From positions 1 through 54,657 of the forward strand of contig JBGAOA010000024.1 of assembly GCA_044222065.1 (NCBI GenBank): a stretch of DNA of 54,657 bases, written 5' to 3'. The translations under genes were made by a program, and so were the position numbers. The notes below the pieces were generated by a model. That model saw nothing but the letters and a program-made list of their open reading frames with translations. It was not told the origin of the DNA and did no database searches. Of this stretch, positions 26,755 through 44,833 are shown piece after piece. Positions within the stretch are counted from its first letter, which is position 1; every line of letters starts with the position of its first letter. The DNA is from Candidatus Eiseniibacteriota bacterium. Its GTDB lineage: Bacteria; Eisenbacteria; RBG-16-71-46.

Positions 26755-28124
26755 TCCCGCGCCACATCTTTCGCGAGTACGACATCCGCGGCCTGCACGC
26801 GACCGAACTGTCGGACGAGGTCGCGCTCGGTGTGGGTCGCGCGTTCGGAACGCTGATCGCCGAGGAGGGCGGCACGCGCGTCGCGCTCGGGCAGGACGTG
26901 CGTCCTTCGAGCGCCCGGCTCGCGGCCGGCGTCGAGCGCGGACTCGTCGCGTGCGGGCTCGCGGTCGAGCGCGTGGGCGTCGTGCCGACTCCGGCGCTCT
27001 ACTACGCGGTCGCTGCGCGCGGGCTCGACGGCGGCGTTCAGATCACGGGCAGCCACAATCCGCCCGAGTTCAACGGCTTCAAGATGACGGCGCGCAAGCG
27101 TCCGATCTTCGGCGCCGACATCCAGCGCATGCGCGAGCGCCTCGAGGCCGGCGACGTGCGCGCCGCGGCGGGAGGGAGCGCGGGCGACCGTCCGGTGCTC
27201 GACGACTACCGCGCGATGCTGGTCGACCGGCTGCGCGGGCCGCGCGGGCTCAAGGTCGTCATGGACTGCGGGAACGGCTGCGCCGGCACCGTCGTGCCGC
27301 AGGTGTTCGAGGCGCTCGGACACACGGTGACGCCGCTCTACGCCGAACTCGACGGCAACTTCCCGAACCACCTTCCCGATCCCACCGTGCCGAAGCTGAT
27401 GGCGGACCTCGCCGCGGCGGTGAAGCGCGAGGGCGCCGATCTCGGCATCGGCTTCGACGGCGACGCCGATCGCATCGGCGCCGTGGACGGCGCGGGCCGG
27501 CTGATCTTCGGCGACCAAATCCTCGCGCTGCTCGCGCGCGACGTGCTCGCGCGCGTGCCCGGCGCCGAGGTGATCTTCGACGTGAAGTGCTCGCAGGGGC
27601 TCGTCGAGGACATCGCGGCGCACGGCGGACGGCCGACCATGTGGAAGACCGGGCACTCGCTCATCAAGAAGCGCCTGCTCGAGACCGGCGCGCCGATCGC
27701 GGGGGAGATGTCGGGGCACATGTTCTTCAGCGAGGGCTACTTCGGATTCGACGACGCGCTGTTCGCGGCTGGCCGGCTCCTGCGCTACGTCGCTCAGAGC
27801 GGCCGCACGCTCGGAGAACTCGTGGACTCGATCCCGCGCTACTACGCGACGCCCGAGACGCGGCTCGACTGTCCCGAGGAGCGCAAGTTCGAGATCCCCG
27901 AGGAGCTGAAGAAGGCGTTTGCCGGCAAGTACAAGGTGATCGACATCGACGGCGCGCGCGTCGAGTTCGGCGACGGCTGGGGCCTCGTGCGCGCCTCGAA
28001 CACGCAGCCGGTCGTGGTCGTGCGCTTCGAGGCGCGCACGCCCGAGCGCCTCGAGGAGATCCGGCGTTCGATGATGGAGCCGCTCGAGCGGCTCGGCGTC
28101 GGTGCCCCGGCCGCGGGCCACTGA
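26751..28124 (+). CDS. Phosphomannomutase/phosphoglucomutase
   Basis: FREYDIRG, ITGSHNP (phosphoserine site), FDGDADR, GEMSGH, RASNTQP. Confidence 0.95.
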   Translation: MIPRHIFREYDIRGLHATELSDEVALGVGRAFGTLIAEEGGTRVALGQDVRPSSARLAAGVERGLVACGLAVERVGVVPTPALYYAVAARGLDGGVQITGSHNPPEFNGFKMTARKRPIFGADIQRMRERLEAGDVRAAAGGSAGDRPVLDDYRAMLVDRLRGPRGLKVVMDCGNGCAGTVVPQVFEALGHTVTPLYAELDGNFPNHLPDPTVPKLMADLAAAVKREGADLGIGFDGDADRIGAVDGAGRLIFGDQILALLARDVLARVPGAEVIFDVKCSQGLVEDIAAHGGRPTMWKTGHSLIKKRLLETGAPIAGEMSGHMFFSEGYFGFDDALFAAGRLLRYVAQSGRTLGELVDSIPRYYATPETRLDCPEERKFEIPEELKKAFAGKYKVIDIDGARVEFGDGWGLVRASNTQPVVVVRFEARTPERLEEIRRSMMEPLERLGVGAPAAGH

Positions 28125-28779
28125 GGCGCCGGAGCCGCCGGCGTTCGATCCGCGCGTGCACCGACCGCTGCCGCGCGCGTTCTACGACCGCCCGGCGCTC
28201 GCGGTGGCGCGCGACCTGCTCGGCCGCGTGCTCGTCCGGCGCGAGCGCGGCGTGACGCTGGCGGCGCGTCTCGTCGAAGTGGAGGCGTACCGGGGCGCGG
28301 ACGATCCCGCGAGCCACGCGTACCGCGGCCCGACGGCGAGGAACGCCGTGATGTTCGGCCCGCCCGGCCGCGCGTACGTCTACTTCACCTACGGCATGCA
28401 TCACTGCGTGAACGTCGTGTGCCGCGAGCGCGGGCGCGCCGAGGCCGTGCTGCTGCGCGGCGCCGCGCCGCTGTTGGGGCTCGCGCGCATGCGGTCCCGA
28501 CGGGGCGGCGCGGCCGACGCCGCGCTGTTGCGCGGGCCGGGCTGCCTCGCGCGGTCGTTCGGCCTCACCCGCGAGCACGACGGCGAGGACCTGACGCGCG
28601 GAGGCGTCTGGATCGCGGACGCGCCGCCCGTCCGCGAGGGGCGTCGCGTGCGGCGCGGGCCGCGCATCGGCATCCGGGTGGCGGTCGAGCGGCCGTGGCG
28701 CCTGTGGCTCGAGGGGCACCCGTGCGTGTCGGGCCCGCGTCGACTCGCCGCCGCGCCGGAACGAGCGAAACCGCGTTGA
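28102..28779 (+). CDS. mpg: 3-methyladenine DNA glycosylase (AAG/MPG family)
   Basis: VEVEAY, DPASH, YVYFTYGMHHC, GPRIGI. Start uncertain. Confidence 0.92.
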   Translation: MPRPRATEAPEPPAFDPRVHRPLPRAFYDRPALAVARDLLGRVLVRRERGVTLAARLVEVEAYRGADDPASHAYRGPTARNAVMFGPPGRAYVYFTYGMHHCVNVVCRERGRAEAVLLRGAAPLLGLARMRSRRGGAADAALLRGPGCLARSFGLTREHDGEDLTRGGVWIADAPPVREGRRVRRGPRIGIRVAVERPWRLWLEGHPCVSGPRRLAAAPERAKPR

Positions 28780-28805
28780 CACCCGCGGGGGAGCGTCCCT
28801 AGGAT
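28776..28805 (+). promoter_or_regulatory. Sigma70-type promoter upstream of the envelope cluster
   Basis: TTGACA-N18-TAGGAT. Confidence 0.55.
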
Positions 28806-28919: not shown

Positions 28920-30548
28920 ATGAGCCCTTCGCGCGGGGTTCGCATCGGCGCGTGTCTGACCACGCTGCTGGCGCTGATCGTGTTCGCGCCGGCCGCCCGG
29001 GCCCAAATGTCCTTCGAGGAAGCGAGCTTCGCACTCGACCCCTCGCCGGATCCGCTCGCGCGCTCGCCGCGCCTGGTCGGCATGGGCCGCCTCACGCTCG
29101 TGATCCCCGATGCGAACAACCGGCTCACGCTCTGGGACTTCGCCGGCAATCCCGTCGGCGCGCTCGACTCCGACTCGATCTCGACCTTCGAGTTCCGCCC
29201 GAACACGTCGTCCCTGTCCGAGTCGCGCGACTTCGTGAACGGCGGACTCGCGGGCGAACGTCAGGACGCTGCGGCTCGCGCGACGTCCCTCGGCTACGAG
29301 TTCTGGCGCCGGGCCGGAACTCGCGTGGCCTTCGGCGCCGTCGGCGATCTCTCGACGCTCAACTGGGACCGCGCCTACGACGACTCGCGCGAGGTGCGCA
29401 GCCGGTTCTCGGTGCCGAACGCGATGCCCGTTCTCACCGGGCAGTTCCCGTTCTTCGCCCGCGAGCGCATGCGCTACGCGCTGCGCGGCATCTTCGCGAA
29501 CGAGATCCACGACGACGAGTACCGCCTCTACACCGTCAACGCCGCGGGACAGTACCTCGATCACGACGGCGGGCTGCTCGGACCTCCGAACTACTTCGAT
29601 CCCGACGAGCGCGACGTGAATCGCGTCGGCATGGGGCTCGCGCTGTCCTACCGCGTGTCGCCGTCGTTCGTGCTGGCCGTGGACGTGGACGGGTTGCGCG
29701 ACCGCATCAAGGGCCGCAACGAGGCCGGCCGCTACCTGTCGCAGCGCGACGAGTCGCGCCCGTACGGCATCGGTCAGGTCAGCGCCGTCGGACGCATCGG
29801 GCCGAACTTCGAGTACGGCCTCGACGCCCGCGGCTGGAAGTCCAGCTCGGACGCGCACTGGGTGTTCACGTTCTCGCAGGGCGCGGGAGCCCGGCCGGTG
29901 ATCGGCCGCGGCGACCTGTACGACCGCGAGGAGGAGGGCTCGAGGACGCGCGCGCGCGTGCGCTGGACGAGCGGCGCACTCGAGTTCGGCGGCAGCTACG
30001 GGACGGGCTACGGCCACTACGAGATCACGACGCCCCCGCTCAGCGATCTCGCCTCGTTCAACCACTTCCTGAACGACCTCTACAACTTCGCGACGAACGA
30101 CTCGCTCGCGCTTCCGGACAGCCTGCGATCGAACACGGTCGAGCACCGTTCGGTGAACTACGCCGGCGGCGTCTCGTACCGCCTGCGTCACGGCATCGTG
30201 GGCGTCGAGTACCACTGGCTCCGCGACCTGCAGGGGGATGACTTTTACGGCGCCGGCCCGCGCCGGATCCTCTGGGACGTGCGCGCCGGCCTCGAGCACG
30301 TGCTGACGCCCGTGCTCACGGGGCGCGCGGGCTATCTCTATCGCTCGGACGATCGGGACGACGAAACGGAGCAGAACGCGTTCGTGAGCCACACGGCGAC
30401 GGCGGGCCTCGGCCTCAAGCACCCCGGCTCTCGCTGGGGGCTCGAGGCGTCGTACGCCTTCGAGTGGGGGATCGCGGATTTCGGGACGCCGAGCCTGCCG
30501 CGCTCCACTCGCCAGCAGCTGGCGGCGGGGCTGCGCTGGTCGTTCTGA
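28920..30548 (+). CDS. Putative outer-membrane beta-barrel protein with FadL/PorV-like N-terminus
   Basis: GAAAGGAG RBS, signal peptide, ARSPRLVGMG...NPVG, amphipathic beta-strands, C-terminal LRWSF. Confidence 0.7.
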   Translation: MSPSRGVRIGACLTTLLALIVFAPAARAQMSFEEASFALDPSPDPLARSPRLVGMGRLTLVIPDANNRLTLWDFAGNPVGALDSDSISTFEFRPNTSSLSESRDFVNGGLAGERQDAAARATSLGYEFWRRAGTRVAFGAVGDLSTLNWDRAYDDSREVRSRFSVPNAMPVLTGQFPFFARERMRYALRGIFANEIHDDEYRLYTVNAAGQYLDHDGGLLGPPNYFDPDERDVNRVGMGLALSYRVSPSFVLAVDVDGLRDRIKGRNEAGRYLSQRDESRPYGIGQVSAVGRIGPNFEYGLDARGWKSSSDAHWVFTFSQGAGARPVIGRGDLYDREEEGSRTRARVRWTSGALEFGGSYGTGYGHYEITTPPLSDLASFNHFLNDLYNFATNDSLALPDSLRSNTVEHRSVNYAGGVSYRLRHGIVGVEYHWLRDLQGDDFYGAGPRRILWDVRAGLEHVLTPVLTGRAGYLYRSDDRDDETEQNAFVSHTATAGLGLKHPGSRWGLEASYAFEWGIADFGTPSLPRSTRQQLAAGLRWSF

Positions 30549-30571
30549 GCCCTCCTGCGCCGAGAAAGCGC

Positions 30572-30600
30572 TTGACAGCTTCGCCACGTTCTCCGAGATT
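30572..30600 (+). promoter_or_regulatory. Candidate sigma70 promoter (distal) for the TBDR operon
   Basis: TTGACA-N17-GAGATT; weak -10. Confidence 0.35.
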
Positions 30601-30787
30601 TCATCGCGACTGGGCGTGGGCGCCGAACCCCGCCGTGCTTTTCTCGGCGTCCCCCTTTACCCGTGACGGACTCGAGTCCGCTCTCATCGGCACTGCCTTC
30701 GTGCGCCCGAGTTCCCCCGCGCCTTCGAGCCTGCCGAACGCCGACACTAAGCAGCGTCGAGCGAAGGGTTTGTCCGTCGGAAAGACT

Positions 30788-30817
30788 TTGACAGCGTGCT
30801 TACACCATTGGCATCTT
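30788..30817 (+). promoter_or_regulatory. Candidate sigma70 promoter (proximal) for the TBDR operon
   Basis: TTGACA-N18-CATCTT preceded by TG (extended -10). Confidence 0.45.
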
Positions 30818-30872
30818 GTCGCGGCTCATTGCGTTGAGGTCCGCTGTCGGATCGACTGGAGAGGTTGACACC

Positions 30873-33623
30873 ATGTTCTTGAAAGGAATGCGCTTGCTCA
30901 CGCCGCTGTGCGCACTGGCGCTGGGTGCGTTGCTGGCCGTGCCGGCCTTCGCGCAGCAGCCGGTCCGACCCGCGGCACCCGCCGCCTCCACGTTCGGAAA
31001 GGTGAGCGGCCGGGTCACGGAGCGCGGGAAGGACCCCGTCGCGTTCGCCAACGTCGTCGTCCTCGGCACCAAGCAGGGCACGATGACGGACGAGAACGGA
31101 AACTTCGTCATCCTCGGCGTTCCGGTCGGGGCGGTGCAGATCCAGGCGCAGGCGATCGGCTTCGACAAGCAGGTCCAGACCGTCCAGGTGAGCGCCGGAC
31201 AGACCGCGATCGCGAACTTCAACTTCGGCGAGTCGAAGGTCGTGAAGCAGATGGAAGAGATCGAGGTGCGCGCTGAGAAGCGCATCGACACCAAATCTTC
31301 GACGACCAAGCAGAACATCACCGCCGAGAAGCTCAAGGAGATCCCGGTGGACAACCTGCGCGAAGCGGTCGGAACCAAGGCCGGCGTCGTCGCGCAGGGC
31401 GGGGAGCTGCACTTCCGCGGCGGGCGCGGCGGCGAGGTGAAGTTCCAGTTCGACGGCGTCGAAGTTTCGGACCCGCTGCTCGGTCGCGGCGCGAACATCG
31501 CGAACCTCGCGGTCGCCGGCACCGAGATCCTGTCGGGCGGATTCGATGCGGAGTTCGGGAACGCGCTCTCGGGCGTCGTGAACGTCAGCACGCGCGAAGG
31601 CACCGACCGCTTCGGCGGCGAGGTGCGCTGGGACACCGACCGATACGGTGATCCCACGAAGACGTTCGACAACTACGACCGCTTCACGTTCGGCTTCGGC
31701 GGTCCGACGCCGGTGAAGAACCTGACCTACTTCGCGACCTACGAGGGCAGCTTCCAGGACACCTACCTGCGCTCGTCGCTGACGCGGCCGAGCACGACGC
31801 TGTTCGACTTCCTGCGCTTCGGCAATCGGCAGGACAACGTCGTGAACACGAACCTCAAGTTCGCCTACCGCGTGAACCCGAAGAACAAGGTGACGTGGGA
31901 GACGATCAACAACCACACGATCCGCACCCCGTACAACCACATGTGGAGCCGGAAGGGCTTCGTGAAGGTGGAGTACGACACGACCGCCGGCGTCAACGGC
32001 GCCCCCGACACGTACACGCCGGTGTACGGCGCCTGGTCGGGCACGCAGGTGGATTCGACCTACCTGCCGATGAACTTGCCCGATCACATGCCGACGCTCG
32101 ACGACCGCTACCGCCAGTACACGGCGGTGTGGACGAGCCAGCTGTCCGACAAGACGGTGTGGTCCACGCGCGCCTCGAATTTCCGCTTCCGCACGCGCTC
32201 CTCGGTCGGTCGCAAGGAACCGTGGGAGTACGACACGCAGAGCCCGTTCTACTGGTCGGGCAACACCGTCGTCGAAAGCGAGAACAACCCGTACTTCGCG
32301 ACGCACGGCGACTTCCCGCGCTACACGAAGCGCGACGCCTCGACGTGGACGCTCAAGAGCGACATGTCCACGCGCCACTGGCGGGCGCACACGTTCAAGA
32401 CCGGTCTCGAGGCGAAGTACAACCGCGTCGAGAACCTCGACCTCACGCTGCCGAACGTCGAGACGAACGGTCTGCCGGGCGGCTCGCGCTCGAGCTACGT
32501 GAACTTCAATCCCGAAGGCGCGGCGTACGTTCAGGACCGGTGGGAGTTCGAAGGTCTGGTGCTGAACGCCGGCGTCCGCTACGACCTCTTCACGCCGGGC
32601 GAGCAGATCACCGATTCCGACCTCAAGAGCGGGGTTCGCTACAAGCAGCAGTTCAGCCCGCGGCTCGGCATCGCGTACCCGATCTCGGACAAGGACGTGC
32701 TGAGCTTCCACTACGGCTGGACCTACCAGACGCCGTCGCGGAACTTCGTGTTCGAGAACCGCGGCGTCACGACGTCGGTGGCCGTGCGCGGCAACCCGGA
32801 CCTCGAGCCCGAGACGAACATTGCGTACCAGGCGGGCGTGCAGCACTTGTTCTCGCGCGACGTCTCGGGGCAGTTCGCGGTGTTCTTCAAGGACATCTAC
32901 GGGCTGATCACCGTGCGCCAGGAGAAGGACCAGTTCGGAAACCTGGTGCAGGCCTACTACAACGGCGACTACGCGAGCTCGCGCGGCTTCGAGGCGAGCA
33001 TCATCAAGAGCTTCAGCCACAAGTTCTCGGCCGAAGTGAACTACACGTACTCGCTCGCGACCGGCGTGTCGTCGGATCCGAACTCCGCGCTCCAGTTCTT
33101 CAACGGCGGCCGGCTCTACCTGCCGATCTCGGAGCAGCCGCTCGACTGGGACCAGCGCAACACGGTCAGCATGCAGGCGGTCGTGCGCGACCCGGGCAAG
33201 TGGGGCTTCCGCATGCTGTGGACGTACGGCTCGGGCTTCCCGTTCACGCCGGCGTTCCGCAACGACCGTCGCCCGGACCCGGCGCTCACGAACACGCGCC
33301 GTCAGCCGTCCGTCACGCGCCTCACGATCGACGGCGACAAGTACTACAAGATCTGGGGCCAGAACGTGACGCTGTTCTTCGACGCCCGCAACGTGCTCGA
33401 CGCGCTGAACCTTGCGAGCATCACCCAGGGCGCGTTCCCGAACCAGAACGTGAACCTCGCGGGTGACGACTACACGATCTACTACACCGAGACGGGTCGC
33501 GCCGGCGGCGCGTACCTGCAGGACATCAACGGCGACAATCTCCTGGATTGGGTTCCGGTCCACGATCCGCGCGTCTTCGAAGAAGGTCGGAACGTGCGGC
33601 TCGGCGTGAGCGTGACCTTCTAG
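30873..33623 (+). CDS. TonB-dependent receptor-like protein with N-terminal carboxypeptidase-regulatory-like domain
   Basis: Signal peptide; GTMTDENGNF; plug HFRGGRGGE and SGGFDAEFGNALSGVVN; AGVRYD, FSPRLG, GNPDLEPE; C-terminal VSVTF. Confidence 0.9.
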   Translation: MFLKGMRLLTPLCALALGALLAVPAFAQQPVRPAAPAASTFGKVSGRVTERGKDPVAFANVVVLGTKQGTMTDENGNFVILGVPVGAVQIQAQAIGFDKQVQTVQVSAGQTAIANFNFGESKVVKQMEEIEVRAEKRIDTKSSTTKQNITAEKLKEIPVDNLREAVGTKAGVVAQGGELHFRGGRGGEVKFQFDGVEVSDPLLGRGANIANLAVAGTEILSGGFDAEFGNALSGVVNVSTREGTDRFGGEVRWDTDRYGDPTKTFDNYDRFTFGFGGPTPVKNLTYFATYEGSFQDTYLRSSLTRPSTTLFDFLRFGNRQDNVVNTNLKFAYRVNPKNKVTWETINNHTIRTPYNHMWSRKGFVKVEYDTTAGVNGAPDTYTPVYGAWSGTQVDSTYLPMNLPDHMPTLDDRYRQYTAVWTSQLSDKTVWSTRASNFRFRTRSSVGRKEPWEYDTQSPFYWSGNTVVESENNPYFATHGDFPRYTKRDASTWTLKSDMSTRHWRAHTFKTGLEAKYNRVENLDLTLPNVETNGLPGGSRSSYVNFNPEGAAYVQDRWEFEGLVLNAGVRYDLFTPGEQITDSDLKSGVRYKQQFSPRLGIAYPISDKDVLSFHYGWTYQTPSRNFVFENRGVTTSVAVRGNPDLEPETNIAYQAGVQHLFSRDVSGQFAVFFKDIYGLITVRQEKDQFGNLVQAYYNGDYASSRGFEASIIKSFSHKFSAEVNYTYSLATGVSSDPNSALQFFNGGRLYLPISEQPLDWDQRNTVSMQAVVRDPGKWGFRMLWTYGSGFPFTPAFRNDRRPDPALTNTRRQPSVTRLTIDGDKYYKIWGQNVTLFFDARNVLDALNLASITQGAFPNQNVNLAGDDYTIYYTETGRAGGAYLQDINGDNLLDWVPVHDPRVFEEGRNVRLGVSVTF

Positions 33624-33644
33624 GCCGAAGGCAGGCGAGGACGA

Positions 33645-36605
33645 ATGAACTCCAGAATCGAACGGTGGGCGAGCGTCGGGGCGGTGGTCGTGGCCCTGAG
33701 CCTCGCGGCGGCGGGCCCGACGCTCGCCGAAGGCGACGAGTTCTTCCGCAAGCCGATGCCCGAGGACGGTCTCTCCGCAGACCAGGTGCGGGCCGCGTTC
33801 CCCGAGCTGTTCGGGGGCGGCAAGGGGCGCAACAGCACCATGGCGGTGCCGGACATCTTCGGCCACGGCGCGGTGCTCGACGTGGGCAAGCTGGTCATGA
33901 AGGTCACGAACTTCGGCCTGTTCGGAAACCCGTTCAACACGGTTTCGAGCGATCCGTCGTGCCAGTGGCCGGGACAGTCGAGCGTCGAGTACATGAACTT
34001 CGTCGCGCTCGCGGTCGGCGCGGTGAATCCCCAGGCGACCGACCCGAACGCGATCCGGCGCGTGAGCTACGGCGGCCTCTTCGAAATGCGGCCGGCGACG
34101 CTCAACCCCGAGGACAAGATCTACCCGGCCTACGACGGCGTCGTGAACGGCGTGCGATTCCTCAACGACGATAGCGACGTGCTCGTGACCCAGACGGGAA
34201 CCGAGCAGCTCATCGACGAGGACTTCCTCGACGGTCACGACAACGACGGCGACGGTCGCATCGACGAGGACTTCGGCGCGGTCGGCCAGAAGATGTTCTC
34301 GCTCGTGATGCGCGACGACACGCCCGAGTCCATCAACTTCGCGCAGGCCGAGAAGCACGTGCCGCTCGGCCTCGAGATTCGCAACCGCTCCTGGGCGTAC
34401 TCGCTGTCCCAGTTCGAGAACTTCAACGTCGTGGACTACGAGATCCTCAACGTCTCGGGCCACGAACTCGACAGCCTCGTCGTCGGCTTCCGCTTCGACA
34501 TGGACTGCGGTCCGACGACCGACCCGAGCTACTTCAACGACGACTTCGACCTGCCGTTCTACCCGCAGGGCAAGTTCCAGTACCACCTGCCCGATCAGGA
34601 CTCGCGTCGCCAGACGCTGCATTCGCCTTCGCTGTACTCGGTCTATCCGGCCGGCTCGCCGCTGTGCACCGATCTCAACATCCAGATCAACGGCTTCTCG
34701 CTCTCGGACGACAACGGCGACGAAGGCAAGACGACCGGCGTTCCGTCGGTGCTGCTGTTCGACATGACGACCGATCCGCTCGGCATCAACGCGCCGTCGC
34801 GCGTCGGCTGGCGCGCGTACCGCCAGTTCCCGTCGGGCACGCCGTACACGCAGGGCGGCAATCCGACGATCGACCAGCAGCGCTTCGAGTTCATGACGAG
34901 CCAGCAGGGCATCGATCTCGAGAATCCCGAGAACATCACGGACAAGACGAACAACTACGGCCTGATCAACGCCGAGCAGGGCGATCAGAAGAGCGACTAT
35001 TCGGGCTGGATCTCGGTCGGTCCGTACCTCGTGGTGCCGAACGGCGGCAGCGTGAGAGTGACGATCGGCATGGCGGTCGCGACGGGCAGCTACCAGCTCG
35101 CGAACCGCTACCCCGGCGAATACCGCCGCTACCAGGCGGGCCTCATCACGCAGGAAGCGTTGTTCGAGCAGTTCCCCTCGGTCGAGAACGCGTTCACGGC
35201 GCAGGTGGCGTTCGAAGGCATCTGGGAGCGCCGCGGCGGCTTCCACGTCACGACGTTCCACGGCCGCGAATCCGAGATCTGCGTGCCGATCACCGGCCAG
35301 ACGCAGTTCTTCGCGGACTGCCGCGATGGCGACAACATGCGTTCGATCCAGGCCGGTCAGTGCGCGTGGTTCGACTTCGACTGCGACTACTGCTCCGGTG
35401 TCTACGACTTCGGCAACGGCGTGGGCCTCTTCCACAAGACCTGGAACGCCTCGGCGCCGCCGCCGAACCCGAACACGAACGTCGCGACGAACTACAACTT
35501 CACGGACAATCCGAATCGCGAATTCGCTCCGGCCGGCGACGGTCAGGTGCTGATCGCATGGGACAACCTGTCCGAGACTTCGCCCGACCCGTCCGACTCT
35601 CGCGAGTTCGATTTCCGCACCTACAAGATCTGGAAGGTGTCGGGGTGGACGCGGCCGGTCGGCTCGCCCGGCCCCGCGGACGACCAGTGGGCGCTGCTCG
35701 CCGAGTTCCGCCTGTTCGACTTCCGCAACGATCGCTCGCACCTTCCGATCCCGGACAACCGCTACTGGAAGCGCATCAGCGCCACCGAGTCCACGCTCGT
35801 CTGCCCGCGCGTGTGGGTTCCCCAGAAGAACGACTCGATGGACATCTGCCTCAAGCGCGGCGACCTGTGGGATCGCCAGAGCGGGACGATCCTCCGCCCG
35901 GACACGACGATCCAGTGCACGGGCTATCCGAATTGCGAGACCGAGCACGGCAACGCTCCGGGCTATTCGCGTGCGCCGCTCGTGATCGAGGAGACGCGCA
36001 CGAAGTACCCGGTCGGCCGCTACCGCTACGTGGACCGTGAGGTCAAGAACGGTTTCCTCTACTTCTACGCGGTGACCGCCGCGGATTCGTCGGTGTCGTC
36101 GAGCGGTGTCGCGACCGAGCTCGAGGGCCGGCGCGCGGCCGTGGAGGCCGAAGGCGTCGTCCCGCAGATCTCCGCGCGCGCGCTCGGCGCGGGCGGCAAG
36201 GTGAGGGTCGTGCCGAATCCGTACAAGGGTTTCCAGGATCCGACCGCGCGTCCGTCCTCGTGGGACCTCACGCCGAACGCCTCCGATCCGACGGGTACTC
36301 ACGTGGACTTCATCGGATTGCCCTTGGGGCGGTGGACGATCCGCATCTACACCGTCTCGGGCGACCTCGTCACCGAACTCCACTCGGAGGATCCGGTGAA
36401 CGAATCGGTGCGCGCCGAGGTGTCGCTGCCGAGCGGTCAGGTCGTGCCCGGGTACAACCGACAGCAGGACACCGCGAACGACGGCCAGGCACGCTGGAAT
36501 CTCATTTCCCGCAACGGCCAGGACGTCGTCAGCGGGATCTACATCTTCACGGTCGAGGCCGAGAACGGCGACGTCGAGCGTGGCAAGTTCGTGGTGATTC
36601 GATGA
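33645..36605 (+). CDS. Large secreted Cys-rich protein with T9SS/FlgD-like C-terminal domain
   Basis: Signal peptide; TNFG; DGHDNDGDGRIDED; FnIII-like YVDREVKNGFLYFYAVTA; CTD VVPNPY...IRIYTVSGDLV...WNL...SGIYIFTV...GKFVVIR; 12 Cys. Confidence 0.85.
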   Translation: MNSRIERWASVGAVVVALSLAAAGPTLAEGDEFFRKPMPEDGLSADQVRAAFPELFGGGKGRNSTMAVPDIFGHGAVLDVGKLVMKVTNFGLFGNPFNTVSSDPSCQWPGQSSVEYMNFVALAVGAVNPQATDPNAIRRVSYGGLFEMRPATLNPEDKIYPAYDGVVNGVRFLNDDSDVLVTQTGTEQLIDEDFLDGHDNDGDGRIDEDFGAVGQKMFSLVMRDDTPESINFAQAEKHVPLGLEIRNRSWAYSLSQFENFNVVDYEILNVSGHELDSLVVGFRFDMDCGPTTDPSYFNDDFDLPFYPQGKFQYHLPDQDSRRQTLHSPSLYSVYPAGSPLCTDLNIQINGFSLSDDNGDEGKTTGVPSVLLFDMTTDPLGINAPSRVGWRAYRQFPSGTPYTQGGNPTIDQQRFEFMTSQQGIDLENPENITDKTNNYGLINAEQGDQKSDYSGWISVGPYLVVPNGGSVRVTIGMAVATGSYQLANRYPGEYRRYQAGLITQEALFEQFPSVENAFTAQVAFEGIWERRGGFHVTTFHGRESEICVPITGQTQFFADCRDGDNMRSIQAGQCAWFDFDCDYCSGVYDFGNGVGLFHKTWNASAPPPNPNTNVATNYNFTDNPNREFAPAGDGQVLIAWDNLSETSPDPSDSREFDFRTYKIWKVSGWTRPVGSPGPADDQWALLAEFRLFDFRNDRSHLPIPDNRYWKRISATESTLVCPRVWVPQKNDSMDICLKRGDLWDRQSGTILRPDTTIQCTGYPNCETEHGNAPGYSRAPLVIEETRTKYPVGRYRYVDREVKNGFLYFYAVTAADSSVSSSGVATELEGRRAAVEAEGVVPQISARALGAGGKVRVVPNPYKGFQDPTARPSSWDLTPNASDPTGTHVDFIGLPLGRWTIRIYTVSGDLVTELHSEDPVNESVRAEVSLPSGQVVPGYNRQQDTANDGQARWNLISRNGQDVVSGIYIFTVEAENGDVERGKFVVIR

Positions 36606-36631
36606 GACCGGATGAGCGAAGGAGGAACCCA

Positions 36632-37576
36632 GTGAAGAGAGCGATCGCGGTCCTGTGCCTGTCCGGCCTGCTGGTCCCCGGACTCGCCGGTGCCGCCAAC
36701 ATCTTCGAAAAGGTCGGGACGTTCGACGGGCAGTTCCTGAAGATCGGCGTCGGCGCACGCGCGTCGGCGATGGGCGGTGCGTTCGTCGGCGTCGCCGACG
36801 ACGCGTCGGCGATCTACTGGAACGCCGCCGGCATCACTCGCATCGATCCCGACAAGTCCGAGTTCAGCTTCAACCACGCGTTCTGGCCCGCGGACCTCAA
36901 GTTCACGCAGGCCGCGTACGTCTTCCACGTGAAGCGGTTCCCGGGGGCGTTCGGCGTCAACGTGCGCGCGCTGTACATGGACCCGATGGAAGAGACGACC
37001 GCGTTCCAGCCGAACGGCACGGGCAACACGTTCGACGCGGGCTACACGAGCGTCGGGTTCACGTACGCCCGTTCGTTCACCGACAAGTTCAGCGCCGGCG
37101 GAACGCTCAACATGATCCACCTCGGGCTCGCCGAGTTCTCGCAGCAGACGACGTCGTTCGACGTCGGCACGCTGTACGACGTCGGCACGCTCGGGATGCG
37201 CATCGGCATGTCGATCTCGAACATCGGCTCGACCGTGCAGTTCATCGAGCGCGAAGGCCGGATCCCCGGCATCTTCCGGGTCGGCACGTCGTTCAACCTG
37301 CTGCAGGGGGCGGACCAGCGCCTGATCGGCTCGTTCGAGTTCTCGCATCCGCCGGACAACTCGGAGCGCGTCAACGTGGGCGCCGAGTACTCGTTCCAGA
37401 AGTACCTGTTCGTGCGCGGCGGCTACAACGTCAACTACGACGCCGAGGGCCTCGCGGGAGGCATGGGTCTGCACGTCCCGGTGTCGATCGTCGGCCAGGC
37501 CGATGTCGACTACGCCTTCACCGACATGAAGGACCTGGGCGCGGCTCACCGCGTCTCGCTGAGGTTCCTGTTCTGA
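36632..37576 (+). CDS. PorV/PorQ-family (UPF0164-like) outer membrane barrel
   Basis: GGAGG RBS, GTG start; FLKIGVGARASAMGGAF, DDASAIYWN, FDVGTLY, GAEY...RGGY, DYAF, HRVSLRFLF. Confidence 0.85.
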   Translation: MKRAIAVLCLSGLLVPGLAGAANIFEKVGTFDGQFLKIGVGARASAMGGAFVGVADDASAIYWNAAGITRIDPDKSEFSFNHAFWPADLKFTQAAYVFHVKRFPGAFGVNVRALYMDPMEETTAFQPNGTGNTFDAGYTSVGFTYARSFTDKFSAGGTLNMIHLGLAEFSQQTTSFDVGTLYDVGTLGMRIGMSISNIGSTVQFIEREGRIPGIFRVGTSFNLLQGADQRLIGSFEFSHPPDNSERVNVGAEYSFQKYLFVRGGYNVNYDAEGLAGGMGLHVPVSIVGQADVDYAFTDMKDLGAAHRVSLRFLF

Positions 37577-37595
37577 TCCGCCTTCCGGTGGCGGA

Positions 37596-39086
37596 ATGAT
37601 TCGCTCCTTCGCTCATCCACGGACGCGCTCCCTCCGGGCGCGTCCGTTCTTTTTCGCGGCCGTGATCGCCCTCGCCGTCGCCGGAGCCTCGCCGGCCGTC
37701 GCGGCGCGACGCATCGAATGGCCCGGCGCCGTGCCCTGGAAGGTCGGCGGTCCCGTCGGCTTCACGGTGGACGCCGCGACGTTCCCCGACAGCGCGGGCT
37801 ACCGGCTCGATGTCTACGTGCGCCTGCGGCCGGCCATGATCGCCACGCTCGCCCGGGGTGAGCGGTTCGCGAACGGGCTCCGTTTGTCGGCCTCGCTCCA
37901 GCTCGATGGCAAGGGGCGCGCGGACGTGTTCGAGCAGACGCTCTCGTTCACCGCGGACGACACCCTTCCGGGCTTCGGGCGCGTCGTCCAGTTCAGTTTT
38001 CGCACGCACCCGGGCACGCACCGGCTGCGGGTGAGTGCCGAGGGGAAGCGCCGCCTGCTCGGCGGGGGCACGGGGCGGACCTCGGTGGCCGAGGTCGAGG
38101 GCGAAGTCGTGGCGCCCGACCCGCAGGCGCGGCGCGACGTGTCGGACCTCGAATTCGTGTGGTCGAGCGGCGATTCGGCGGTCTCGCGCGCGTTCGAGCG
38201 CGGGGGGACGCGCCGCGTGCCGAACCCGGAACGTCTCTACGGATTGCTCGCTCGCGAGGTCCGCGCGTCGTTCGTCGCGCGCGCGCTCGAGGGCGACGAG
38301 CGGCCGTGGCGCTGGGTCGCGCGCCTGCTCGATTCGACCGGTGCGACGATCGCGGTGCGCGAGACCACGGCCGCTCGCGGGCGCTGGCTCCACGGCGACG
38401 TCGAGTTCGACGTCGCGTCGGAGTCGTCGGGCGGGTACGAGATCGAAGTGAAGGCGTGGCAGGAGGGCGATCCCGGAGCGCTGACGCGCCGATCGCGCTT
38501 CAGCGTCGCGTGGCACCCCGAGACGTGGAACCGCAACCCGCGCGATCTTGAAGACGAAGCCCACTTCCTGCTCTCGCGCGAGGACGAGGACGAGTTCGCG
38601 ATGATGCTCGCCGGCGAGCAGGAGCGATACCTCGTGGACTTCTGGAAGCAGCGCGATCCCGATCCGTCGACCGGCGTGAACGAGGCACGGGAGAGGTTCC
38701 TCTCGCGCGTGGACTTCGCGAACCGCACCTACGGCCGCTTCGGAGTCGAGAAGGGCATGTTCTCGGACATGGGCCGCGTGTACATCCGCTACGGCGAGCC
38801 GAACGAAGTGCATCGTGCCGTGATGCCGGGCCGCGACAACGAACTCGAGCGCGTCATCGCGCAGTACATCACGCCCGAGGACCGGCCGGTCGGCGACATC
38901 GAGGACAAGCAGCTCGGCGCCGACATGCGCCCGTTCGAGCTGTGGATCTACCAGGGCGATCTCGCGCCGCCGCCCGACGCCGATCCCGGCGCGGGCGGGC
39001 TCCTGCACTTGCGCCGCCGCCTGCTGTTCCTGTTCGTGGACGAGCGCGGACTCGGCGACTACCGGCTCAAGTACTCGACGGAATGA
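37596..39086 (+). CDS. GWxTD domain-containing exported protein
   Basis: Signal peptide; FWKQRDPDPSTGVNE, RVDFAN, GMFSDMGRVYIRYGEP, ELWIY, FLFVDERGLGDY. Confidence 0.85.
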   Translation: MIRSFAHPRTRSLRARPFFFAAVIALAVAGASPAVAARRIEWPGAVPWKVGGPVGFTVDAATFPDSAGYRLDVYVRLRPAMIATLARGERFANGLRLSASLQLDGKGRADVFEQTLSFTADDTLPGFGRVVQFSFRTHPGTHRLRVSAEGKRRLLGGGTGRTSVAEVEGEVVAPDPQARRDVSDLEFVWSSGDSAVSRAFERGGTRRVPNPERLYGLLAREVRASFVARALEGDERPWRWVARLLDSTGATIAVRETTAARGRWLHGDVEFDVASESSGGYEIEVKAWQEGDPGALTRRSRFSVAWHPETWNRNPRDLEDEAHFLLSREDEDEFAMMLAGEQERYLVDFWKQRDPDPSTGVNEARERFLSRVDFANRTYGRFGVEKGMFSDMGRVYIRYGEPNEVHRAVMPGRDNELERVIAQYITPEDRPVGDIEDKQLGADMRPFELWIYQGDLAPPPDADPGAGGLLHLRRRLLFLFVDERGLGDYRLKYSTE

Positions 39087-39215: not shown

Positions 39216-40250
39216 ATGCGTCTCGGAATCCTCACCGGCGGCGGCGATTGCCCCGGTCTGAACGCCGTCATCCGCGCGGTCGCCCGCCGGGTCCTGCGCG
39301 GTCACGACGGCCAGCTCGTCGGGTTCCTGGACGGCTGGAAGGGGCTCATCCAGAGCCGAACGCTCGAGCTCGACCTCGACACCGTCCGGGGCATCCTGCC
39401 TCGCGGGGGCACGATGCTCGGGACCTCGAGGACCGATCCGCTCCGCGAGTCCTCGGTCGTGAAGCTTCAGGACGCCTTCCGCCTCCACGAGATCGACGGA
39501 CTGCTCGTCTGCGGCGGCGAGGGCACGCTCGCTGCGGCGCTGCGGCTCAGCGAAGCCGGGCTTCCGATCATCGGCATCCCGAAGACCATCGACAACGACG
39601 TGCCCGGGACCGAGTACTCGTTCGGATTCGACACGGCGCTCGACACCGTCGTGCGCGCGGCGGACGCGCTCCACACGACGGCCGAATCGCACGACCGTGT
39701 CATGGTGCTCGAGACGATGGGGCGGACGACCGGCTGGCTCGCGGTGTGCGCCGGCATCGCCGGCGGCGCCGACGTCGTCGTCGCGCCGGAGGCGCCGACG
39801 AGCGTGCAGGCCGTGTGCGATCACATCCGCCGACGCGTCGCGCGCGGACGCGACTTCAGCATCGTGCTCGTCGCCGAAGGCGCCGAGTTCGTTCCGGACG
39901 CGGACGGATTCGTGCTGCAGGCGCCGGACCGCCGCGATCCGTTCGGCCGCCCGCGCTTCGGCGGCATCGGGGAATTGCTCGCTGGCGAGATCGAGCGGCG
40001 GCTCGGGATCGAGACGCGCACCGTGATCCTCGGCTACACGCAGCGTGGCGGGACGCCGACGGCGTTCGACCGGCTGCTCGGCACTCGCATGGGCGTCGCG
40101 GCCGCCGACTTCGCGGCCGCGGGGAAGTACGGAACGATGGTGAGCCTGCAGGGCGGGCGCATCGTCCCCGTGGACTTGAGCGTGATTCGACAGGGCGCAC
40201 GCCGGGTGGACCCCGAGCTGTACGCGTGCGCGCAGGTGTTTTTCGGCTGA
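39216..40250 (+). CDS. pfkA: 6-phosphofructokinase (PfkA family, group III-like)
   Basis: LTGGGDCPGLN, GGTMLGTSR, GGEGT, PKTIDND, ETMGR, QRGG. Confidence 0.94.
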   Translation: MRLGILTGGGDCPGLNAVIRAVARRVLRGHDGQLVGFLDGWKGLIQSRTLELDLDTVRGILPRGGTMLGTSRTDPLRESSVVKLQDAFRLHEIDGLLVCGGEGTLAAALRLSEAGLPIIGIPKTIDNDVPGTEYSFGFDTALDTVVRAADALHTTAESHDRVMVLETMGRTTGWLAVCAGIAGGADVVVAPEAPTSVQAVCDHIRRRVARGRDFSIVLVAEGAEFVPDADGFVLQAPDRRDPFGRPRFGGIGELLAGEIERRLGIETRTVILGYTQRGGTPTAFDRLLGTRMGVAAADFAAAGKYGTMVSLQGGRIVPVDLSVIRQGARRVDPELYACAQVFFG

Positions 40251-40301
40251 ACGACGCCGGACTCGGTTCCGGCTCTCGATCGAAACCCGGAGGAGGGGAC
40301 G

Positions 40302-41306
40302 ATGGCACTGCGTGTGGGCATCAACGGTTTCGGCCGCATCGGGCGGCTCGTGGTGAGGGCGGCGAAGCAGCGCAAGGAGAAGATCGATTTCGTCGCGGTG
40401 AACGACCTGACGGACGCGAACACGCTCCAGCACCTGCTCAAGTACGACAGCGTGCACGGCGTGTGGTCCGAGTGCCCGAGCAAGCCGAACGCGGAGGGCC
40501 AGCTCATGGTCGTCGGCGACGCGATGAAGGTGTACGCCGAGAAGGATCCGACGAAGCTGCCGTGGAAGGACCTCGGCGTGGACGTCGTGATCGAGGCGAC
40601 GGGGAAGTTCACCGACAAGGAGAAGGCGGTCGTCCACCTCGCAGCCGGGGCGCGCAACGTGCTCGTATCGGCGCCGTCCAAGGGCGCGGACCTCACGTTC
40701 GTGTTCGGCGTCAACGACCAGCTGTTCGACAAGTCGAAGCACACGGTCGTGAGCATCGGCTCGTGCACGACGAACTGCCTCGCGCCGGTCGCGAAGGCGC
40801 TCAACGACGCGTTCGGCATCGAGCACGGCTTCATGACCACGATCCACGCCTACACGAACGATCAGAACATCCTCGACCTGCCGCACAAGGACCTGCGTCG
40901 TGCGCGCGCCGCGGGGCTCAGCATGATCCCGACCTCGACCGGCGCGGCGAAGGCGATCGGCGAGGTGCTGCCCGAGCTGAAGGGCAAGCTCGACGGACTC
41001 GCGGTGCGCGTGCCCGTGTGCGACGGCTCGCTCGTGGACCTCGTGTGCCGCGTCAAGAAGGGCGTGGACAAGGCGGCGGTGAACGCGGCGGTCAAGGCGG
41101 CGGCGCAGGGCCCGATGAAGGGCGTGCTCGAATACTGCGAGGATCCGATCGTGTCCATGGACGTCGTCGGCAATCCGGCGAGCAGCGTGTTCGACTCGCT
41201 CTCGACGCTCGTCATGGCGGAGAACACGGTCAAGGTGTTCTCGTGGTACGACAACGAGTGGGGTTTCTCGAACCGCATGGTCGACGCCCTGCTGCGGATG
41301 GCGTGA
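40302..41306 (+). CDS. gap: Glyceraldehyde-3-phosphate dehydrogenase type I
   Basis: GINGFGRIGR, SCTTNCLAP, TGAAK, WYDNEWG. Confidence 0.98.
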   Translation: MALRVGINGFGRIGRLVVRAAKQRKEKIDFVAVNDLTDANTLQHLLKYDSVHGVWSECPSKPNAEGQLMVVGDAMKVYAEKDPTKLPWKDLGVDVVIEATGKFTDKEKAVVHLAAGARNVLVSAPSKGADLTFVFGVNDQLFDKSKHTVVSIGSCTTNCLAPVAKALNDAFGIEHGFMTTIHAYTNDQNILDLPHKDLRRARAAGLSMIPTSTGAAKAIGEVLPELKGKLDGLAVRVPVCDGSLVDLVCRVKKGVDKAAVNAAVKAAAQGPMKGVLEYCEDPIVSMDVVGNPASSVFDSLSTLVMAENTVKVFSWYDNEWGFSNRMVDALLRMA

Positions 41307-41316
41307 GGAGGCGGCC

Positions 41317-42522
41317 GTGAGTTTCGCGAAGAAGACGATCAAGGACCTCGACGTCGCCGGCAAGCGCGTCTTCGTGCGCGTGGACTTCAACGTCCCGGTC
41401 GCGAACGGCGAGGTGTCGGACGACACGCGGATCGTGGCCGCCATGCCCACGATCCGCTACCTGCTCGAGAAGAACGCCCGGCTCGTGCTCGCCTCGCACC
41501 TGGGGCGACCGAAGGGCGGGCCAGAGCCGAAGTTCTCCATGAAACCGGTGAAAGCCCGCCTCGAACGCCTGCTCCGCAAGAACGTCGCGTGGTCGGACGA
41601 CTGCATCGGCGAGGCGGCCGAGGCCGCGTCGAAGGCGCTCCCGCCGGGCGGCGTGCTGCTGCTCGAGAACCTGCGGTTCCATCCGGAGGAAGAGAAGAAC
41701 GATCCGGCGTTCGCGGCCGCGCTCGCGGAGCTCGGCGACGTGTACGTGAACGACGCGTTCGGCACCGCACACCGGGCGCACGCCTCCACCGAGGGCGTCG
41801 CGAAGCTGCTGCGGCCCGCGGTGGCCGGCTTCCTCATGCAGAAGGAGCTCGACTACCTCGGCCGTGCGCTCGATCAGCCCGTGCGGCCGTTCGTCGCGAT
41901 CCTCGGCGGCGCGAAGATCTCGGGCAAGATCGACGTGATCACGCAGCTGCTCGGCAAGGTGGACCGCCTGCTCATCGGCGGTGCGATGATGTTCACGTTC
42001 CTCAAGGCCCAGGGCGTTCCGACCGGCAAGTCGCTCGTCGAGGACGACCGCATCGAGATGGCGAAAGACGTGCTCGCGCAGGCGAAGGCGCGCGGAGTGG
42101 AACTCGTGCTGCCGGTGGACTGCATCGCGAGCACGGCGCCGGACGGCAGCGCGGCGGGCCGCCCGTGCGCGCTCGCCTCGCTCGGCGCCGACGAGATGGG
42201 CGTGGACATCGGGCCCGAGTCGGTGAAGCTTTTCGCCGAGCGACTGCGCGACGCGAAGACGATCGTCTGGAACGGGCCGATGGGCATCTTCGAGGTCGAG
42301 GCGTTCGCGGCCGGCACGCTCGGCGTCGCGAAGGCCGCGGCCGAGGCGAAGGGGCGCGGCGCCGTGACGGTCGTCGGCGGCGGCGATTCCGTCGCGGCCG
42401 TGCAGCAGGCCGACCTCGCCGACCGCTTCACCCACCTCTCGACCGGCGGCGGCGCGTCGCTCGAGTTCCTCGAGGGCAAGACGCTTCCGGGCGTCGCCGC
42501 GCTCGATGACGCGGGGGCGTGA
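41317..42522 (+). CDS. pgk: Phosphoglycerate kinase
   Basis: RVDFNVP, SHLGRP, LENLRF, NDAFGTAHR, WNGPMG, STGGGASLE. Confidence 0.98.
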   Translation: MSFAKKTIKDLDVAGKRVFVRVDFNVPVANGEVSDDTRIVAAMPTIRYLLEKNARLVLASHLGRPKGGPEPKFSMKPVKARLERLLRKNVAWSDDCIGEAAEAASKALPPGGVLLLENLRFHPEEEKNDPAFAAALAELGDVYVNDAFGTAHRAHASTEGVAKLLRPAVAGFLMQKELDYLGRALDQPVRPFVAILGGAKISGKIDVITQLLGKVDRLLIGGAMMFTFLKAQGVPTGKSLVEDDRIEMAKDVLAQAKARGVELVLPVDCIASTAPDGSAAGRPCALASLGADEMGVDIGPESVKLFAERLRDAKTIVWNGPMGIFEVEAFAAGTLGVAKAAAEAKGRGAVTVVGGGDSVAAVQQADLADRFTHLSTGGGASLEFLEGKTLPGVAALDDAGA

Positions 42523-43295
42523 TCGTGCGTGAGCGACGGCCGAGGCTCGTCCTCGGGAACTGGAAGATGCACAAGACGTCCGGGGAAGCGGGAACGCTCG
42601 CACGCGAGCTGCGGTCGCTCGTCGGCGTCAGTCCCGGTTGCGGCGTGGGCGTCGCTCCGACGTTCACGTCGCTCGACGCCGTGCGCGCCGCTCTCGACGG
42701 CGGCCCCGTGACACTCGGCGCCCAGAATCTCCACCCGGAGACGCACGGCGCGTTCACGGGCGAGATCTCGGGCCCGATGCTCGTCGTGGCCGGCTGCCGC
42801 TGGGTGCTCGCCGGACACTCGGAGCGACGGCACGGACTCGGCGAGGACGACGCGTTCGTGGCGAAGAAGGTCCGGGCGGCGCTTCGCGACGGGCTCGAAC
42901 CGGTGTTGTGCGTCGGCGAAACGCTGGCCGAGCGGGAGGCCGATCGCACGGCCGAGGTGCTCGTCCGGCAGGTGACGGTCGTGTTCGACGGACTCGAACG
43001 CGCATCGGCGAACGCGATCGTGATCGCCTACGAACCCGTGTGGGCGATCGGCACCGGCCGCGTGGCGACGCCCGAGCAGGCCCGCGACGCGCACCGCGTC
43101 ATCCGGGCCACGCTCGACCGCGTCGCCGGCGCGGGGGCGGGGAACGCGAAGACGATCCTCTACGGCGGCAGCGTGAACGCCGCCAACGCGGCTTCGCTGT
43201 TCGCGGAATCCGACGTGGACGGGGCGCTCGTCGGCGGCGCGTCGCTCGATCCGAACGCGTTTCTCGCCATCGTGAGGGCGGCTTCGAGCGCGTAG
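42519..43295 (+). CDS. tpiA: Triosephosphate isomerase
   Basis: GNWKM, GHSERR, AYEPVWAIGTG, YGGSV, VGGASL. Confidence 0.98.
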   Translation: MIVRERRPRLVLGNWKMHKTSGEAGTLARELRSLVGVSPGCGVGVAPTFTSLDAVRAALDGGPVTLGAQNLHPETHGAFTGEISGPMLVVAGCRWVLAGHSERRHGLGEDDAFVAKKVRAALRDGLEPVLCVGETLAEREADRTAEVLVRQVTVVFDGLERASANAIVIAYEPVWAIGTGRVATPEQARDAHRVIRATLDRVAGAGAGNAKTILYGGSVNAANAASLFAESDVDGALVGGASLDPNAFLAIVRAASSA

Positions 43296-43832: not shown

Positions 43833-43918
43833 GCCCGGGTGTGGTGGAATTGGTAGACACGTACGTTTGAGGGCGTATGGGGAAACCCGTGCGAGTTCAA
43901 ATCTCGCCCCGGGCACCA
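43833..43918 (+). tRNA. tRNA-Leu(GAG), atypical as written
   Basis: Acceptor GCCCGGG/CCCGGGC-A-CCA; D arm GTG GAATTGGTAGA CAC; long variable arm; T arm GCGAG TTCAAAT CTCGC. Has 2 extra nt before the D arm and a 6-nt anticodon loop. Confidence 0.88.
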
Positions 43919-44703: not shown

Positions 44704-44733
44704 TTGAGGCTCGATTTCGCGCTGTGCTAGCGT
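44704..44733 (+). promoter_or_regulatory. Candidate promoter for the tol-pal operon
   Basis: TTGAGG-N18-TAGCGT with TG extended -10. Confidence 0.35.
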
Positions 44734-44833
44734 GCCCACGCGTCTCCCCACGCGACTCGGATGGAACGCAGTCCCACCGGATTCGGTCGCCGGGACCGCC
44801 GCCCGGGACGACTTCACACGGAGAGTGAAGCCG

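Follow-up and report, generated by a model that had tools for sequence, protein, structure and literature searches.

A conserved locus of Candidatus Eiseniibacteriota encodes a candidate TonB-dependent import unit built with type IX secretion parts

We analyzed a 54,657-nucleotide stretch of DNA from a Candidatus Eiseniibacteriota bacterium (GenBank assembly GCA_044222065.1, contig JBGAOA010000024.1; hereafter the window), which is contig C55 of the host genome G000 (4.2 Mb, 94% complete), and five genes within it, g1 to g5. The initial annotation had offered two readings of these genes: an alternative to the SusC/SusD nutrient importers or an export route derived from type IX secretion machinery (the T9SS). 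Our analysis favors the first for three of them, namely g2, a TonB-dependent transporter (TBDR), g3, a large secreted protein, and g4, a PorV/PorQ-family barrel. We think it fairly likely that g2, g3, and g4 form a TonB-powered import unit, in which T9SS-secreted g3 stays on g4 through an uncleaved C-terminal tail and feeds g2 as SusD would. The locus probably does the nutrient-capture job of Bacteroides SusC/SusD with parts borrowed from the T9SS. This reading draws on gene order, a distinct subclass of g3 tail, a TonB box in g2, linkage to Ton motor genes in relatives, and the absence of SusD, from which we infer the interface between the proteins. Below, C-numbers denote contigs of G000, L-numbers the loci compared, and G-numbers the genomes of the phylum sample.

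Conservation of the locus across the phylum

Matches to g2 (E 1e-100 or better) were detected in 120 of 121 phylum-sample genomes, with the best full-length match mostly at 42-81% identity. By hand count, 88 genomes contain one match and 32 contain two to four. The sole genome without a match in this single search, G054, carries g3 in two pieces in adjacent frames. We compared gene order in two sets of loci. Set A comprised 45 loci picked by g3, of which 7 lacking g2 (contig ends or paralogues) were excluded. For set B, we used g2 to pick 40 loci in other families, favoring long contigs and drawing on 40 of the 120 genomes. All neighbors were present in set A where testable (g3, 38/38; g4, 35/35; g5, 35/35; g1, 31/31), and the counts for set B were 39/40 for g3, 36/37 for g4, 35/36 for g5, and 38/38 for g1, which was directly adjacent in 29 of the 38. 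L074 lacks g3, yet its genome, G088, keeps this gene on another contig (790 bits). In L058 the locus is broken just past the g3 start, and L046, L052, and L069 hold a second g3 between g4 and g5. Gene order is kept across relatives far beyond chance.

The genes differ in how well their sequences are conserved. Mean identity between the two sets (53 loci) was 60% for Pgk, encoded in the flanking glycolysis operon, followed by 52% for g4, 45% for g2, 36% for g3, 26% for g5, and 18% for g1. The g2 tree reproduces 16 of the 18 well-supported Pgk splits and the g4 tree 15 of them, with two conflicts each.

g2 is a plugged TonB-dependent transporter outside the SusC/RagA family

The initial annotation had called g2 TBDR-like, g4 PorV-like, and g5 a GWxTD protein, and all three assignments hold, with the respective profile cut-offs exceeded. 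In g2, these are the Pfam cut-offs for an N-terminal CarboxypepD_reg extension, the plug (PF07715), and the TonB-dependent barrel (PF00593). Residues 129-134 form a TonB-box-like segment, E-[IV]-x-V-x-[AG], which lies ahead of the plug and is kept in 70 orthologues. In all 70, the residue at position V132 is V or I and the protein ends in F. With 48.5 bits against a cut-off of 368 for TIGR04056, g2 does not belong to the SusC/RagA family. Its orthologous group is narrow, with approximately 20 clusters (50% identity) scoring above 600 bits, and three of these are long repeat proteins that align through the N-terminal extension only. Single-sequence PDB searches with g2, g3, g4, and g5 returned no useful match.

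g3 combines a predicted supersandwich domain with a distinct class of tail

No Pfam family matched g3, and none of its 30 nearest Atlas clusters is named. The AlphaFold model (pLDDT [predicted local distance difference test], 87.8) contains an N-terminal beta-supersandwich (approximately residues 68-480), further beta domains, and an all-beta tail. The best fold match is glucoamylase 1lf6 (VIA Z 18.7, root mean square deviation 3.1, 254 residues aligned), followed in lower rows by members of glycoside hydrolase families GH94 and GH65 and by mutarotase. The supersandwich resembles the non-catalytic domain of glucoamylase and of GH65/GH94 phosphorylases, and also aldose epimerases. An acidic DxDxDGxxDED motif is present in 120 of 130 relatives, and the g3 alignment contains invariant cysteines as well as invariant E119, R143, D148, D196, and H210 (alignment numbering).

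These features could also point to g3 as a surface enzyme that cuts or converts a polymer, with g2 importing the product. By fold, g3 is nearest to glycoside hydrolases, phosphorylases, and aldose epimerases, and the five invariant residues could form a site. However, the alignment covers only about 250 residues of the beta domain at 7-13% identity, and the calcium-type acidic motif accounts for several of the invariant acids. The model contains short scattered helices only and no large helical (alpha/alpha)6 catalytic barrel, the feature by which GH15, GH65, and GH94 enzymes would be recognized. We therefore regard an enzymatic g3 as unlikely and favor a binding role for it within the import unit.

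The tail sets g3 apart from ordinary T9SS cargo, which carries a C-terminal domain (CTD). The PorZ model NF052228 scored 18.6 bits (cut-off, 260; E 0.0005) over tail residues 898-976 only, so g3, with its predicted supersandwich, is not PorZ; the same model matches the tails of three paralogues. A hidden Markov model (HMM) of the g3 tail matched eight open reading frames (ORFs) in G000. The seven triad-type cargos (see below) scored 48-159 bits and a protein on C127 scored 60, compared with at most 27.6 for the 40 best ordinary CTD proteins. A terminal G-[KR]-F motif, picked after viewing the tails, occurs in six of the seven cargos and, by eye, in PorU, and in none of the 40 best ordinary CTD proteins. 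By sequence, the g3 tail forms a subclass of its own, confined to these cargos. The CTD of PorU and that of PorZ are retained in P. gingivalis, where PorV anchors the former protein and PorQ the latter (PMC5562754). Because the g3 tail resembles the PorZ/PorU type, g3 may by analogy be a retained cargo held by g4.

g4 is a PorV-family barrel distinct from PorV and PorQ

g4 scored 183.5 bits against a cut-off of 90 for the PorV family (NF033709), as one of eight such genes in G000, and its profile matched the solved PorV structure 6h3i_F (E 4.6e-16). It fell below both equivalog cut-offs, with 63.5 versus 250 bits for PorV (NF033710) and 76.2 versus 220 for PorQ (NF033711). TPR, OmpA, or propeller parts occur in long PorV-family proteins, but a TBDR or GWxTD domain was seen in none of the 16 matches. 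Complex prediction for g4 with the g2 barrel, from which the plug was omitted for size, gave a score of 0.19 (mark, 0.32) and is no evidence either way.

The triad recurs elsewhere, in places with Ton motor genes

The TBDR-cargo-PorV triad recurs three more times in G000 (C38, C80, and C84), and also in distant metagenome loci and low-GC lineages. The catabolic neighbors of the paralogous triads (Table 1) are the context of uptake systems. G000 also holds a g2-g3 duplicate (C51), two lone g3 paralogues (C23 and C89), and a lone related TBDR (C20), and these copies may share the single g4. The tails of the C84 and C127 paralogues do reach the cut-off of the general CTD model TIGR04183.

As a distant set, we used metagenome loci L143-L181, 39 in all, which fall outside the Eisenbacteria-type group. 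In seven of the 39, exbB-exbD-exbD-tonB is part of the module, and an eighth has exbB alone (Pfam-checked in L145 and L148); many of the rest are on short contigs. L144 and L145 read TBDR-g3-PorV-GWxTD-exbB-exbD-exbD-tonB, and in L148-L151 and L156 the motor genes lie between TBDR and cargo. A single FastTree tree, with a distant paralogue as its root, places L144 and L145 in the clade that is sister to g2 (support, 0.98). The cargo of L143 is attributed to bacterium DOLZORAL124_64_63, presumably a member of Krumholzibacteriota. G000 itself has a single exbB-exbD-exbD-tonB run, on C106, and 15 TBDR matches over the cut-off.

This recurrence defines the core unit as g2, g3, and g4. Only in the Eisenbacteria set and the sister clade, where exbB-exbD-exbD-tonB comes directly afterwards, is g5 part of it, and the distant triads lack both g1 and g5. 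The five-gene module of the initial annotation is thus sound in its core but overstated at its edges, with g1 loosely attached and g5 missing from the more distant triads. The recurrence also bears on whether the genes share a machine at all. They could simply have persisted side by side in an old neighborhood, as a TBDR of the usual kind, a cargo of the T9SS plus its shuttle, and envelope genes without any relation to these, given that the flanking housekeeping genes are nearly as syntenic, that g1 and g5 are absent from the distant triads, and that g3 can relocate. Yet the TBDR-cargo-PorV order recurs in unrelated settings and in low-GC lineages, the genes stand 19-26 bp apart, and no ordinary cargo shares the tail subclass, making mere co-location decidedly improbable.

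T9SS components are present, whereas SusD and motor components were not detected

Because G000 encodes SprA (C118), PorU beside PorV (C77), and 133 matches to the CTD model TIGR04183, the locus is not needed as an export route. The initial annotation was correct that no sprA or porU lies in the window, but this was misleading, as both are elsewhere in the genome. Its proposal of a T9SS-derived export route is unsupported. TBDR Oar exports PopC in Myxococcus, and g2 has the same kind of N-terminal extension; translocation of g3 by g2 or g1 could be imagined on this pattern. TonB-dependent secretion is also named as a precedent in PMC9127263. Against this, the genome has its own T9SS parts, g3 has a T9SS-type tail, and g2 is a conventional plugged TBDR. 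We consider it very unlikely that the locus itself exports g3.

SusD (PF07980) was detected in 0 of 101 phylum genomes, although the positive control was detected, and g3 has no SusD match. No full-length PorZ was found in G000. SprA is present in 99 of the 101 genomes, whereas GldL_N, GldN, and GldM were each found in 0 of 101, with none in G000, in searches that had no motor-bearing positive control and did not cover GldK. Divergent motors may therefore have been missed. These counts raise the question of what energizes a T9SS in which no GldLM motor is detectable.

One answer would make g2-g5 an envelope-housekeeping machine driven by ExbBD-TonB, possibly supplying the energy step that GldLM gives to the T9SS, or moving a lipid or glycan anchor. 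The contrast between SprA and the Gld proteins would fit, as would the conservation of the locus: 88 of 121 genomes have a single g2 match, the g2 tree largely follows Pgk, and g4 is nearly as conserved as Pgk. In the sister clade, Ton motor genes follow g5, and an operon of the Fibrobacteres-Chlorobi-Bacteroidetes group joins SprA with TonB-C proteins, as described in PMC12419801. However, divergent motors could account for the Gld result, and sprA is unlinked to the locus in G000, where an M28 peptidase gene, rimP, and nusA lie downstream of it. The paralogous triads stand in catabolic contexts, and the tree agreement is compatible with joint transfer because Pgk is physically linked to the locus. 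We judge such a machine to be unlikely. A narrower form, in which the TBDR-g3-PorV-GWxTD set is part of a motor replacement, seems quite unlikely; Ton would then power the T9SS or a step of surface anchoring, and the GWxTD protein would be the periplasmic link. If true, it would give GWxTD proteins their first function and suggest a T9SS working before or without a rotary motor.

Proposed mechanism of the import unit

In the import unit that we favor, Sec would carry g3 across the inner membrane, and SprA, by way of the g3 tail, across the outer one; SprA and the tail are observed, and the route is proposed from them. The tail would then escape cleavage by PorU and stay bound to g4, like PorZ on PorQ and PorU on PorV, a binding suggested by analogy from the observed subclass. 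Beside g2, the predicted non-catalytic supersandwich and the calcium-type acidic motif would bind substrate and hand it over to the transporter. Finally, ExbB-ExbD-TonB would pull the TonB box and open the g2 plug; the box is observed in g2 and the linkage to motor genes in its relatives, and transport would follow from them.

The substrate would be universally needed, because the locus is retained in nearly every genome in a fixed housekeeping neighborhood. Our first guess is oligosaccharides or cell wall fragments, favored by the g3 fold and the paralogue contexts; our second is peptides, favored by the ABC (ATP-binding cassette) transporter of the sister clade.

Several observations weigh against the proposal. 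A TBDR specific for one nutrient is not usually kept so strictly throughout a phylum, and the flanks, prfB-pgm and the glycolysis genes, include no substrate-specific neighbors. L143-L145 follow a peptide-type ABC transporter rather than sugar genes, which argues against a glycan substrate. The pairing of cargo and barrel is not strictly one-to-one, as the g3 paralogues on C51, C89, and C23 have no adjacent PorV gene and the g2 orthologue of metagenome locus L139 stands alone. The g3 tail scored 14 bits with TIGR04183, below the cut-off of 23. All physical contacts, the lack of g3 cleavage, and the substrate are inferred.

g5 and g1 lie outside the core

g5 exceeds the cut-off of TIGR04514 (71.4 versus 28 bits), and PF20094 was found in 70 of 72 orthologues, with the GWxTD motif reading GMFSD in this genome. 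Its model (pLDDT, 86.8) contains two immunoglobulin (Ig)-like beta-sandwich domains and the GWxTD domain, and fold searches returned generic Ig matches only (Z <8). No fusions of g5 were found among proteins of 869-2480 aa, which is weak evidence. g5 has no conserved lipobox and is probably periplasmic; within this orthologous set, its most likely role is that of a periplasmic adaptor. A BamE-like fold for its C-terminus, suggested by eye, found no support: hhalign probabilities were 0.5 and 9.0 versus up to 7.7 and 17.9 for shuffles (six BamE-like sequences), and there was no PDB match. BamE itself (PF04355) exceeded the cut-off in 4 of 61 phylum genomes, G000 not among them, and the positive control was detected. 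G000 has three more GWxTD genes (C95:21929-23203, C17:5957-8884, and C45:53236-55362), and the one on C95 lies near a gene for a CTD-type protein and a probable barrel gene. The term "GWxTD" did not occur in the literature searched.

g1 alone has no Pfam match; its profile matches the FadL structure 3dwo (E 1.6e-7) and structures of TodX and CymD, and it also matches the g4 profile (hhalign probability, 92; E 6.8e-7). g1 resembles BamG/BamH of the Bacteroidota beta-barrel assembly machinery (BAM; PMC12611786) in that it is a FadL-family barrel encoded in most families beside a lipoprotein gene. Unlike in that pair, the lipoprotein is of the EB_dh/DOMON type; its gene lies upstream of g1 in 32 of 40 set B loci (L046-L085, e.g., L062:867-1982) and was not found in G000. 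The g1 profile had no match to BAM chains at E up to 1, although BAM entries 9hiv and 9n2d were in the database; this comparison of sequence profiles gave no support for g1 as BamG. In nine loci from two families (L050, L058, L062, L064, L065, and L082-L085), approximately 3.1 kb separate g1 from g2 and, where checked by Pfam (two of the nine), hold a TldD/PmbA metallopeptidase pair. In view of this insertion, its own promoter-like site, the two conserved promoter-like sites between it and g2, its usual pairing with an upstream lipoprotein gene, and its absence from the sister-clade loci L143-L145, g1 is most likely a looser, separately expressed neighbor.

Organization of the locus and promoter-like sites

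ORF and domain analysis bore out the description of five co-oriented genes between mpg and the glycolysis operon (Table 1). The spacing of the last four was likewise confirmed as tight, with measured gaps of 21 bp (g2-g3), 26 bp (g3-g4), and 19 bp (g4-g5) rather than the claimed 20-26 bp; g1 and g2 are 324 bp apart. Third-position GC is 0.90-0.93 in g1, g2, g3, and g5. Judged by eye, the N-termini of g1 to g5 all resemble signal-peptidase-I signals, and a loose lipobox pattern is rare in orthologue N-termini (g5, 7/73; g1, 3/69; g4, 8/72).

Table 1. Coordinates of the locus, its putative promoter elements, and the paralogous loci of G000
Feature	Location	Strand	Description
mpg	28102-28779		Left flank of the five-gene run
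Promoter-like site ahead of g1	28776-28805	+	Putative sigma70-like site; consensus scan, 10/12 matches
g1	28920-30548	+	542 aa; FadL/PorV-superfamily outer membrane barrel
P1 and leader motif	30572-30660	+	Promoter-like site (TTGACA at 30572) with GGGCG leader motif; possible short hairpin
P2	30788-30817	+	Promoter-like site directly ahead of g2 (TTGACA, 18 nt, CATCTT, TG upstream)
g2	30873-33623	+	916 aa; TBDR
g3	33645-36605	+	986 aa; large secreted protein, PorU/PorZ-type C-terminal tail
g4	36632-37576	+	314 aa; PorV/PorQ-family barrel; GTG start after AGGAGG
g5	37596-39086	+	496 aa; Ig-like domains and GWxTD domain
pfk-gap-pgk-tpi	39216-43295		Right flank of the five-gene run
Triad	C80:6401-20200		Beside two PF10091 glycoamylase genes and a LacI gene
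Triad	C84:1-9553		Beside a nucleobase permease gene
Triad	C38:22847-39594		Beside genes for adenosine deaminase and RpiB and two likely lipoprotein genes
g2-g3 duplicate	C51:11234-16984		Close, recent duplicate without PorV
g3 paralogue	C23:2682-5507		Lone
g3 paralogue	C89:71339-73870		Lone
Related TBDR	C20:29632-32088		Lone

The sigma70 consensus scan returned two sites versus 0.5 expected in shuffles. P1 with its GGGCG motif lies approximately 200 bp ahead of P2 and is present in 29 of 31 close-relative loci and in 0 of 38 rows from other families. P2 was not flagged by the consensus scan; its strict pattern occurs in 25 of the 31 close-relative loci, with variants in other loci, and a sigma54 reading was rejected on its spacing, judged by eye. 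The P1 element could be a regulatory leader or short RNA, with a weakly supported hairpin. A structured (6S-like) RNA in the g1-g2 gap was rejected, with no Rfam match, a folding z-score of 0.39, and no RNAalifold consensus; a hand-drawn 6-bp stem in the gap had 76% paired cells versus 74% in shuffles. Short RNA-library contigs (0-1 differences, depth 2-7) covered g1-g5 in all four runs examined, of 13 RNA data sets, but most fit only partly and there was no silent control, so that transcription is not established.

Farther downstream, a tRNA gene follows secG (43833-43918). ARAGORN reads an unresolved four-base anticodon (tgag) here, and the gene is probably a tRNA-Leu with an unusual loop. 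A TolQ-TolR-TolA-TolB-YbgF run and, after it, a gene for a protein of 537 aa occupy 44732-50809; this protein matches BamA weakly (39.6 bits, residues 70-188).

Relation to known systems and significance

In the literature searched, whose coverage largely leaves out subscription papers, we found no account of this gene set. Like SusC/SusD (RagA/RagB), the locus encodes a TBDR with an N-terminal extension together with a large surface partner, and its paralogous loci lie among catabolic genes. Unlike in that system, g2 is below the SusC/RagA cut-off, and g3 is not a lipoprotein, lacks the SusD fold, and has a T9SS tail and a barrel of its own in g4. As in the PorZ-PorQ and PorU-PorV pairs, a CTD protein would be held at the surface by a PorV-family barrel, and the g3 tail resembles both the PorZ model and the PorU tail of G000; however, g3 is not PorZ, g4 is neither equivalog, and the pair is tied to a TBDR rather than to a sortase, the porU-porV genes of G000 being on C77. 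Compared with the Bacteroidota T9SS, G000 has SprA, PorU, PorV, and many type A CTD proteins, whereas GldL, GldM, and GldN were not found in the 101 genomes (no positive control) and G000 has no full-length PorZ.

Newly measured here are the housekeeping-like retention of the locus across the phylum, the loose attachment of g1 and g5, the tail subclass, the tie to Ton motor genes in the sister clade, and SprA without detectable GldLMN. Such retention is the mark of a core function in these little-known bacteria, be it in nutrition or in the envelope. Known surface partners of TBDRs, such as SusD, BtuG, and TbpB, are lipoproteins. If our proposal is true, lidded importers could be built in a second way, with a T9SS-exported partner that sits on a PorV-family barrel of its own, and this would explain the eight PorV-like barrels and the separate class of T9SS tail in a phylum without SusD.

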